From a virus: DNA of 64,000 nucleotides. Below, piece by piece: positions 48,621-48,679 of the stretch. The notes under the pieces are model-generated. The model was not told where the DNA came from and searched no databases. It saw only the letters and a program-made list of their open reading frames with translations. How positions within the stretch are numbered: position 1 is the first letter of the stretch; each line of letters begins with the position of its first letter. Location of the stretch: IMG/VR virus record IMGVR_UViG_3300045988_027877, positions 39,851 to 103,850 of that record, one strand, 5' to 3'. The translations under genes were made by a program, and so were the position numbers.

Positions 48621-48679
48621 TTCCCCTGGTCGGACTCGAACCGACATTTAGGAATTTTAGCCATTTAAACTACAGGGGT
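48621..48679 (-). ncRNA. tRNA-like element lacking an anticodon arm (59 nt)
   Basis: ACCCCTG-TA-GTTT-AAATGGCTA-AAAT-TCCTAAAT-GTCGG-TTCGAGT-CCGAC-CAGGGGA-A. Confidence 0.4.

Follow-up and report, generated by a model that had tools for sequence, protein, structure and literature searches.

A tRNA-shaped element without an anticodon arm ahead of the DNA polymerase gene of a crAss-like phage, and its possible role as a processing signal

tRNA-like modules that act in RNA processing are already known from mammalian transcripts (mascRNA) and from mitochondria (tRNA punctuation). In this paper we describe a candidate of this kind in a virus: a tRNA-shaped element without an anticodon arm (element 1) on the minus strand of a 64,000-nucleotide stretch of IMG/VR record IMGVR_UViG_3300045988_027877 (positions 39,851 to 103,850), which we call the window and whose numbering we use throughout. 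Element 1 had been noticed in an earlier reading of the letters without database searches (the sequence-only reading), which placed it between a DNA polymerase gene and a gene for a basic protein, in agreement with the list of open reading frames (ORFs). The window polymerase is 94% identical to that of the crAss-like phage cr52_1 (tblastn), and on sequence grounds we assign the window to Buchavirus (Crassvirales; Suoliviridae; Loutivirinae). Crassvirales count among the most abundant human gut phages, and the expression of their genes is little understood. Our full-text literature searches turned up no account of tRNA-like elements lacking an anticodon in Crassvirales, nor of phages that use tRNA punctuation.

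Functionally, the nearest parallel to the mechanism that we propose would be mascRNA, known from MALAT1 and MEN-beta. Like element 1, it is a tRNA shape with a reduced anticodon arm inside a longer transcript; RNase P and RNase Z make the ends of the flanking RNAs and leave a CCA-tailed by-product of about 60 nt. That system is eukaryotic and nuclear, belonging to mammalian long non-coding RNAs whose upstream part is protected by a triple helix, whereas element 1 lies in a phage operon in a bacterium, lacks the arm altogether and has a simple hairpin upstream, and its cleavage is only proposed. In mitochondrial tRNA punctuation, too, polycistronic transcripts of one strand have tRNA-shaped units directly between their coding regions, and the likeness extends to the real tRNAs found in the same slots of related phages. 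Mitochondrial units are working tRNAs, however, and those that are truncated lose the D or the T arm rather than the anticodon arm, while in the phage elements decoding is gone and the half relevant to processing is alone kept.

Other systems share single traits with the locus. The tRNA-like domain of transfer-messenger RNA (tmRNA) has an acceptor, a T arm, a D-loop analogue and no anticodon arm, but its halves are split by an mRNA-like domain and pseudoknots, and it carries G3:U70 for alanylation. YrlA, a bacterial and phage Y RNA, mimics a tRNA by its T and D arms, is cleavable by RNase P and can receive CCA (PMC4201824). Its RNA termini form a Ro60-binding stem and its gene adjoins rsr, whereas the termini of element 1 form the acceptor stem; Pfam gave no significant match for the nine neighbouring ORFs scanned, so no TROVE/Ro60 protein is encoded among them, and no Rfam YrlA match reaches the gathering score. 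At the RNase III sites between the early genes of phage T7, a host endonuclease likewise cuts between cistrons and leaves stabilising hairpins, but the enzyme is another one and recognises a long double-stranded hairpin, not a tRNA shape. Engineered tRNA scaffolds exchange the anticodon arm for cargo, and relatives of the window insert hairpins of 13 to more than 100 nt exactly there; the scaffolds, however, are laboratory designs. The tRNA-like structures of plant viruses are 3'-terminal with a pseudoknotted acceptor, unlike element 1, which is internal, precedes an ORF and has an ordinary two-strand acceptor. As expected of a tRNA-like processing module, element 1 is intergenic, co-oriented with the genes and 20 nt from the polymerase ATG. 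Its parts and immediate surroundings are the following.

48621-48679, minus strand: element 1, armless tRNA-like RNA, 59 nt (sequence, Rfam tRNA family, custom model R1, covariation)
48673-48679, minus strand: acceptor stem of element 1, 5' strand
48671-48672, minus strand: U8 and A9
48654-48670, minus strand: D stem, loop and stem
48646-48653, minus strand: linker, 8 nt
48629-48645, minus strand: T arm
48622-48628, minus strand: acceptor stem, 3' strand
48621, minus strand: discriminator A (A73)
48601-48620, minus strand: A/U-rich 20-nt leader CAAACTTAACACCATTAACT, from the discriminator base to the polymerase ATG (sequence)
46621-48600, minus strand: family-A DNA polymerase gene, 659 aa, downstream of element 1 (ORF list, tblastn)
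48732-48755, minus strand: hairpin GCAGGC-(12 nt)-GCCTGC at the end of the upstream ORF, the 12 nt including its stop codon TAA at 48743-48745 (sequence, fold in context)

Read on the minus strand, element 1 is ACCCCTG-TA-GTTT-AAATGGCTA-AAAT-TCCTAAAT-GTCGG-TTCGAGT-CCGAC-CAGGGGA-A, letter for letter as the sequence-only reading gave it, and the anatomy described there holds as well. Six of the seven acceptor pairs form, with an A1:A72 mismatch and an unpaired A73 (in the sister armless variant all seven are paired); the canonical T arm has 5 bp and the loop TTCGAGT; the loop of the D arm holds G18G19. The 8-nt linker replaces the anticodon arm and variable loop, normally 21-22 nt, and both the 5-bp anticodon stem and the 7-nt anticodon loop of a canonical tRNA are missing. 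The tertiary core is nevertheless complete (U8 and A14 as U8:A14, A15/U48, G18G19, T54-T55-C56 and A58).

RF00005, RNAfold and ARAGORN, which had been recommended for checking the element, agree with this anatomy. When the whole window is compared with all 4227 Rfam families, the tRNA family RF00005 is aligned over its whole length with element 1, scoring 35.4 bits against a gathering score of 29 (E=0.001), and its 18 anticodon-arm model positions shrink to 4 nt; the score above threshold reflects the tRNA body only. At relaxed thresholds, other Rfam families returned nothing but noise around element 1. The custom model R1, built from the elements that occupy the same slot before the polymerase gene in relatives, scores element 1 at 54.6 bits. 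RNAfold keeps the acceptor stem and the T arm in both the minimum free energy (MFE) and the centroid structure of the element alone (z=-2.0), and both helices are still present with 176 nt of context. ARAGORN calls zero tRNAs in the whole 64-kb window, so no standard cloverleaf was overlooked, an error that the sequence-only reading had considered. CCA is not encoded, the bases that follow A73 being CAAAC; the genome sequence across the 3' end is CAGGGGAACAAAC, and a version with a non-templated CCA tail would be CAGGGGAACCA.

For the taxonomic distribution of this slot we compared 80 relatives from IMG/VR with polymerase identities of 75-98%, of which 78 loci include the polymerase start. A tRNA-shaped element on the gene strand, ending 15-22 nt before the polymerase ATG, is found in 77 of them, and in the exception (L075) the T arm alone was detected. 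It was on conservation in some relative that the sequence-only reading had made the element depend, and the armless architecture for which it proposed to search is present in cr52_1 and cr113_1 among others. The spacing to the ATG is maintained throughout the relatives, together with a C-(A/T)-A start of the leader. Every one of these elements has the acceptor, the D arm and the T arm, and the middle part is highly variable, as the following forms illustrate.

Middle part absent, 57-59 nt: the window, cr52_1, cr113_1
4-bp stem with loop GTAA, GAAA or CTATG, 70-71 nt: L028, L080, L033
4-bp stem with a 12-nt loop, 79-83 nt: L053, L064, L078
Three-helix arm of about 70 nt with a UUCG cap, 117-118 nt: L003, L004, L012
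Insertions from about 70 nt up to over 100 nt, 122 to about 180 nt: L014, L070, L077
Normal anticodon arm, tRNA-Met(CAT), 70 nt: L071, L074, L076

The slot is also seen in four other Suoliviridae genera. In cr1_1, from another subfamily, it holds a real tRNA-Val(CAC), and in cr10_1 and cr6_1 degenerate cloverleaves with a canonical T arm. The polymerase slot keeps a tRNA shape at a fixed position, not a tRNA identity. One relative with 98% polymerase identity and identical flanks (L003) nonetheless carries the long-arm version, so the variants have evidently been swapped by recombination with their pairing retained. Within the long inserts, tRNA was the sole Rfam match and no ribozyme was found. 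A scan with the 14-nt pattern TGTAGTTTAAATGG was unspecific, hitting chiefly coding sequence or ordinary tRNAs; a stricter pattern, applied to IMG/VR and metagenomes, returned 8 distinct armless sequences and no more. Similar shapes were also observed elsewhere. An unrelated viral contig (L123, IMGVR_UViG_3300029358_000337) has a 59-nt armless tRNA-like sequence (GGATATG...CATATCC) right after two tRNA genes, and an environmental contig (L221, Ga0180007_10198517) has a tRNA-like sequence with an arm of 3 bp and 4 nt.

Purifying selection acts on the tRNA shape of the slot and not on the anticodon region. We aligned 19 distinct variants of the polymerase slot with the middle part removed: 98% of the cells in the stems are standard pairs and 14 of the 16 pairs have changed on both sides, against 28-47% pairing in controls whose partners were slid by 1-3 columns. 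Only the universal tRNA core and the T loop stay unchanged throughout. One armless subtype shows 13 substitutions, none of them pair-breaking, including two compensated T-stem pairs (GAGGG/CCCTC, AAGGG/CCCTT, GAGAG/CTCTC), one change from GC to GU and eight changes in loops or linker; the 60-nt spacer upstream of the armless elements, unlike the element itself, gathers substitutions and indels. The two armless subtypes have the D arm and the deletion in common; of their 7 acceptor pairs 5 differ, and of their 5 T-stem pairs 3-4, each time with compensation. For the long-arm variants, RNAalifold independently recovered the cloverleaf with its long arm, including compensated pairs within the arm. 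On the gene strand G.U pairs are frequent and A.C pairs absent, both here and in element 2 (described below); since wobble pairs are confined to this strand, the structure is an RNA of the gene strand and not DNA. The covarying stems, the absence of pair-breaking substitutions and two further elements in the window agree with the functional class that the sequence-only reading had suspected. Its alternative of a decayed tRNA gene is right as to the tRNA origin, with real tRNA-Met and tRNA-Val genes in the same slot, but not as to plain decay, since the stems covary and no pair is broken.

We tentatively favour the reading that element 1 is a tRNA gene without decoding ability, kept for its shape, which serves in tRNA punctuation by RNase P and RNase Z. 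Among the roles listed by the sequence-only reading, such a processing signal would fit the anatomy of element 1 best. The selected shape would be the minihelix of acceptor and T arm with the elbow of D loop and T loop. Element 1 would be transcribed within the mRNA of the replication genes and host RNase P would cut at its 5' end, so that the upstream mRNA ends in a protective hairpin; we propose the stop-codon hairpin at 48732-48755 for this shielding of the 3' end. RNase Z, or an equivalent 3' maturation enzyme, would then cut after the discriminator base (N73). This would free the polymerase mRNA with the short, unstructured, A/U-rich leader at 48601-48620 as its 5' UTR (untranslated region), presumably to the benefit of expression, and a mini-tRNA of about 58 nt would be released as a by-product. 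Bacterial RNase P, RNase Z and the CCA-adding enzyme recognise their substrates by this minihelix and elbow and can all dispense with the anticodon arm, and element 1 retains the 12-bp stack of acceptor and T arm and the elbow. In vivo, in M. smegmatis, the tRNA-like domain of YrlA, which has an acceptor stem of 7 bp, is cut by RNase P and acquires CCA (PMC4201824).

The arrangement of the upstream genes is consistent with this mechanism. Element 1 lies 63 nt from an upstream ORF of 208 aa (pI 10.4), and the stem of the stop-codon hairpin covaries in relatives (GCTAGC/GCTAGC, GCAAGC/GCTTGC). In many relatives the stop-codon hairpin of the upstream ORF comes as near as 3 nt to the 5' end of the polymerase-slot element. 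In a second slot, before the primase gene, relatives have a long hairpin with TTTT after it, about 4-10 nt upstream of the element. Gaps of 3 or 4-10 nt hold no promoter, and in those relatives the element and the downstream gene must therefore be read through from upstream. Scans for sigma-70 promoters and intrinsic terminators gave background levels, with models unsuited to a Bacteroidales host.

Several points weigh against the processing signal. In the window a 43-nt A/T-rich spacer separates the hairpin from element 1 and could hold a promoter, and the host is uncultured. The thermodynamic z-scores of element 1 are modest. The set of 19 variants was chosen with pairing criteria and includes real tRNAs, which inflates its statistics, and there are just 8 distinct armless sequences; recombination between variants, rather than stepwise compensation, may be part of the source of their differences. 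Furthermore, a pure cleavage signal does not require the covarying insert of the long-arm variants, although this covariation may only reflect selection against misfolding.

The window holds three further elements, of which elements 3 and 4 were found by scanning it with R1. Like element 1, each lies between genes, in the same orientation as these and immediately before an ORF, and would act likewise on its own downstream gene.

50670-50734, minus strand: element 2, tRNA-like RNA derived from tRNA-Arg(TCT) (sequence, alignment to orthologous tRNA-Arg/Lys)
42949-43047, minus strand: element 3, tRNA-like cloverleaf with large inserts (R1 T-arm match of 19.3 bits, sequence, fold)
59127-59172, minus strand: element 4, 46-nt mini tRNA-like RNA (R1 match, sequence)

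Element 2 consists of the acceptor CATGCAT/ATGCATG, a D arm, the mini-hairpin CTC-TTTA-GAG and the T arm GGGAG-TTTGATC-CTCTC. The sequence-only reading had reported it as a second case of the same deletion; the element is real, but its arm is reduced to a hairpin of 3 bp and 4 nt rather than cleanly deleted. More distant relatives have a genuine tRNA-Arg(TCT) (or Lys/Leu) some 2 kb upstream of the polymerase gene, to which element 2 can be aligned column by column, and the 17-nt anticodon arm of this parent has become a 3-bp stem with a loop of 4-5 nt. The mini-stem covaries (CTC-TTTA-GAG, CTC-GTAA-GAG, CTA-TTTAA-TAG), the acceptor, D and T stems are 100% paired with 13 of 16 pairs changed on both sides, and the unusual elbow of the parent tRNA, D-loop GA with T-loop TTT (A19:U56-type), is kept. 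Upstream of element 2 we also observed three minus-strand hairpins (50743-50760, about 50774-50793 and about 50815-50832) that share the 8-nt loop UGAAYKGG on 5-6-bp stems differing from one another. Before element 2 or the real tRNA-Arg of relatives this motif occurs in 2-3 copies with a constant loop and freely covarying stems, and it may be a protein-binding or processing site.

Element 3 ends 16 nt before the primase ATG (42932). Its acceptor GTTGGGA/TCCCTTC has two U.U mismatches and covaries in cr52_1 (GTTAGGA/TCCTTTC), and its T arm GTCAG-TTCGAAT-CTGAC is canonical. The primase slot of relatives holds full tRNA bodies with inserts of 70-85 nt, a version with a 6-bp stem and a tetraloop, or a mini form of just 41 nt. 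Element 3 is closely preceded by a long hairpin (43053-43091, minus strand; ACGTGAGTAC-(18 nt)-GTACTCACGT, then TTT) whose ...ACTCACGTTTT end is kept in nearly all relatives, even those without a tRNA-like element before the primase gene; it is either terminator-like or a protector of a 3' end. Element 4 has an 8-bp stem (AGTAAGTG/CACTTACT), a 13-nt linker and a 4-bp T arm (GGGG-TTCAAAT-CCCC), and stands about 35 nt upstream of the ORF 58810-59091. Its slot holds variants of 46 to 72 nt in relatives, where it is the 3' end of a region that ARAGORN calls a permuted tmRNA.

Alternatively, element 1 might stay on the polymerase mRNA and act in cis as a 5' stabiliser, translational operator or ribosome recruiter, for example by binding polymerase or primase for autoregulation. 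We regard this as unlikely, even though the constant spacing of 15-22 nt to the ATG in the polymerase and primase slots and the fact that these two best-defined slots both precede replication enzymes are in its favour. Also in its favour, an upstream segment in the window can pair with the region of the start codon and enclose element 1: in the MFE fold of 48590-48765 (minus strand), UGUAAUCAU upstream of the element pairs with AUGAUUAUA, the first three codons of the polymerase gene. This pairing is not conserved in L023, which has 97% polymerase identity and in which the upstream segment is unconserved; the pairing is therefore probably fortuitous, and we reject sequestration of the start codon by such a helix. 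Action in cis is further opposed by the real tRNAs in the same slot of relatives, which would necessarily be excised, by the expectation that bacterial RNase P should cut such a substrate with a 7-bp acceptor (PMC4201824), and by elements 2 and 4, which precede unrelated small ORFs. A functionless, neutrally and slowly decaying tRNA pseudogene would be one explanation for the rejection of element 1 by ARAGORN and for its being unmarked in the RefSeq annotation of cr52_1; phage tRNA sets turn over fast and the slot tRNAs differ among relatives. We consider it very improbable, given the pairing of 98-100% with many compensations and no disruptive change even in the armless copies while the adjoining spacer diverges, the same outcome at four independent loci, and the tendency of compact phage genomes to delete useless DNA. 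Lower still is the probability of a DNA-level element, either an attP core that derives from a tRNA gene of the host or a cruciform at a replication origin. The 3' halves of tRNAs are common integration cores and element 1 adjoins replication genes; however, element 1 has the D arm as well as both strands of the acceptor, its stems covary rather than match host sequence, and the G.U pairs are confined to one strand. The 24-nt 3' half of element 1 has 0 exact matches in 185,579 species genomes and a 19-nt version hits three unrelated genomes only; an attP core is rejected, as no host tRNA matches. GC skew does not change at element 1.

If the element is excised, the product rather than the cut might be what matters: a CCA-tailed mini-tRNA could act in trans as an aminoacylated carrier outside normal decoding, or it could divert or soak up some host factor that binds tRNAs, such as EF-Tu, an aminoacyl-tRNA synthetase, a modification enzyme or a defence toxin that attacks the elbow or the acceptor end. 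The whole tertiary core is kept (U8:A14, A15:U48, G18G19, T54-A58), similar armless and mini-arm forms occur in the tRNA gene cluster of the unrelated phage L123 and in L221, and the phage also has a tmRNA-like locus. Yet we would give such a role only a small chance, since nothing is conserved outside the tRNA core (acceptor, discriminator (A/T/C/G) and linker vary, leaving no identity set), the tight position before the ORF goes unexplained and the known anticodon nucleases require the anticodon loop. The decoy for tRNA-targeting defences that the sequence-only reading had listed finds no support in our results. A broader idea, that stable, CCA-tailed mini-tRNAs of about 58 nt, the tmRNA-like RNA and three adjacent basic proteins with ssrA-like ends (-LAA or -QAA) form a programme that manipulates host translation or quality control or shields the phage from tRNA-directed defence, appears more doubtful again. 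Finally, the linker contains CTA, which the sequence-only reading had pointed out as the anticodon for TAG, though outside a normal loop, and the absence of any ARAGORN tRNA from the window and the recoding of TAG in the late genes could point to a non-canonical amber suppressor. The replication genes on the minus strand use the standard code with TAG as stop; the late and structural genes on the plus strand (window 1-39000) make sense only with TAG as a sense codon, giving stop-to-stop ORFs of 4466 aa (32 TAG), 1442 aa (23 TAG) and 1384 aa (19 TAG). CTA is not conserved, though, being absent from the sister-variant linkers TGTTAAAT, TGTAAAAT and TGTCAAAT, and the decoding centre is out of reach for a molecule that lacks an anticodon stem. 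In cr52_1 a canonical tRNA(CUA) lies 14 nt upstream of the terminase gene (terL), a region outside the coverage of the window, so the linker CTA is not needed for decoding TAG. In the first 100 kb of the 103.7-kb genome of cr52_1, the part that was scanned, this amber suppressor is the sole true tRNA, and the remaining tRNA-shaped loci are these four anticodon-less elements. We therefore reject the linker CTA as a suppressor anticodon. A tRNA-like domain of the tmRNA type would also be without an anticodon arm, but position 3:70 is C3:G70 in element 1 and T3:A70 in element 2 instead of G3:U70, element 1 is contiguous over 59 nt with no tag frame between its halves, and the Rfam tmRNA families gave no match at the locus down to E=5. 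Suppressor and tmRNA domain together have next to no probability.

The processing signal that we favour would mean that a bacterial virus punctuates its operons through the tRNA-maturation machinery of its host, as mitochondria do, and that it does so with dedicated tRNA bodies that gave up decoding. Real tRNA, mini-arm, armless and long-arm forms in one slot of related genomes show an exaptation in progress. tRNA finders miss or mislabel such loci ('tRNA-His(atg)', 'tRNA-???', pseudogenes), and armless loci should not count as decoding capacity in code-switching analyses of recoded phages. RNA engineers also use the tRNA scaffold, of which the elements are naturally occurring examples.

At the region that ends in element 4 (about 59120-59500, minus strand), cr52_1 and many relatives receive a permuted tmRNA call from ARAGORN and RefSeq, with the tag GNTSYV(T/M)DYTRL(V/A)A*. 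The tag-like ORF (about 59205-59252) persists even in relatives with only 41% identity in the neighbouring protein, and its changes, 7 synonymous and 4 non-synonymous, look codon-like. There are reasons to doubt a true tmRNA: the Rfam tmRNA models match nothing beyond the T loop (11.7 bits), G3:U70 is missing, the tRNA-like part stands complete by itself at the 3' end and the window gets no such call from ARAGORN. Antisense to the region upstream of this locus, a 191-aa ATG-started ORF (59388-59963, plus strand) lies within the minus-strand block; the matching stretch of cr52_1 has no annotation.

Between elements 2 and 1 lie three successive basic ORFs (48743-49369, 49396-50058 and 50109-50612, minus strand; pI 9.3-10.4) whose C-termini resemble ssrA degrons (...KQAA, ...LLAA, ...CLAA). 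None of the 30 other listed minus-strand ORFs ends in AA, and in relatives the ORF immediately upstream of the polymerase-slot element likewise ends in (L/Q/I/R)AA. The three proteins have no similarity in Pfam, PHROG or PDB, and sequence searches of the neighbouring proteins in Pfam, PHROGs and PDB gave nothing informative and identified no tRNA- or RNA-processing enzyme. Further along, about 52100-54250, 2.1 kb are without an ORF of at least 100 aa on either strand under the standard, TAG-sense and TGA-sense codes. This region has no repeats and no Rfam match, its GC and AT skew resembles that of the minus-strand genes, and its counterpart in cr52_1 (74203-76311) is unannotated too; it perhaps encodes a large non-coding RNA or serves in regulation. 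The Rfam search of the window also gave four matches above the gathering score.

63021-63147, minus strand: Hatchet self-cleaving ribozyme (96.2 bits)
61238-61392, minus strand: RAGATH-9 (120.1 bits)
60216-60318, minus strand: RAGATH-20 (121.0 bits)
5397-5485, plus strand: RT-17, a reverse-transcriptase-associated motif (40.8 bits)

Hatchet, RAGATH-9 and RAGATH-20 are all found in cr52_1, which has a reverse transcriptase gene besides, and their presence in the same transcription block as element 1 fits a phage that relies on RNA cleavage to shape its messages.

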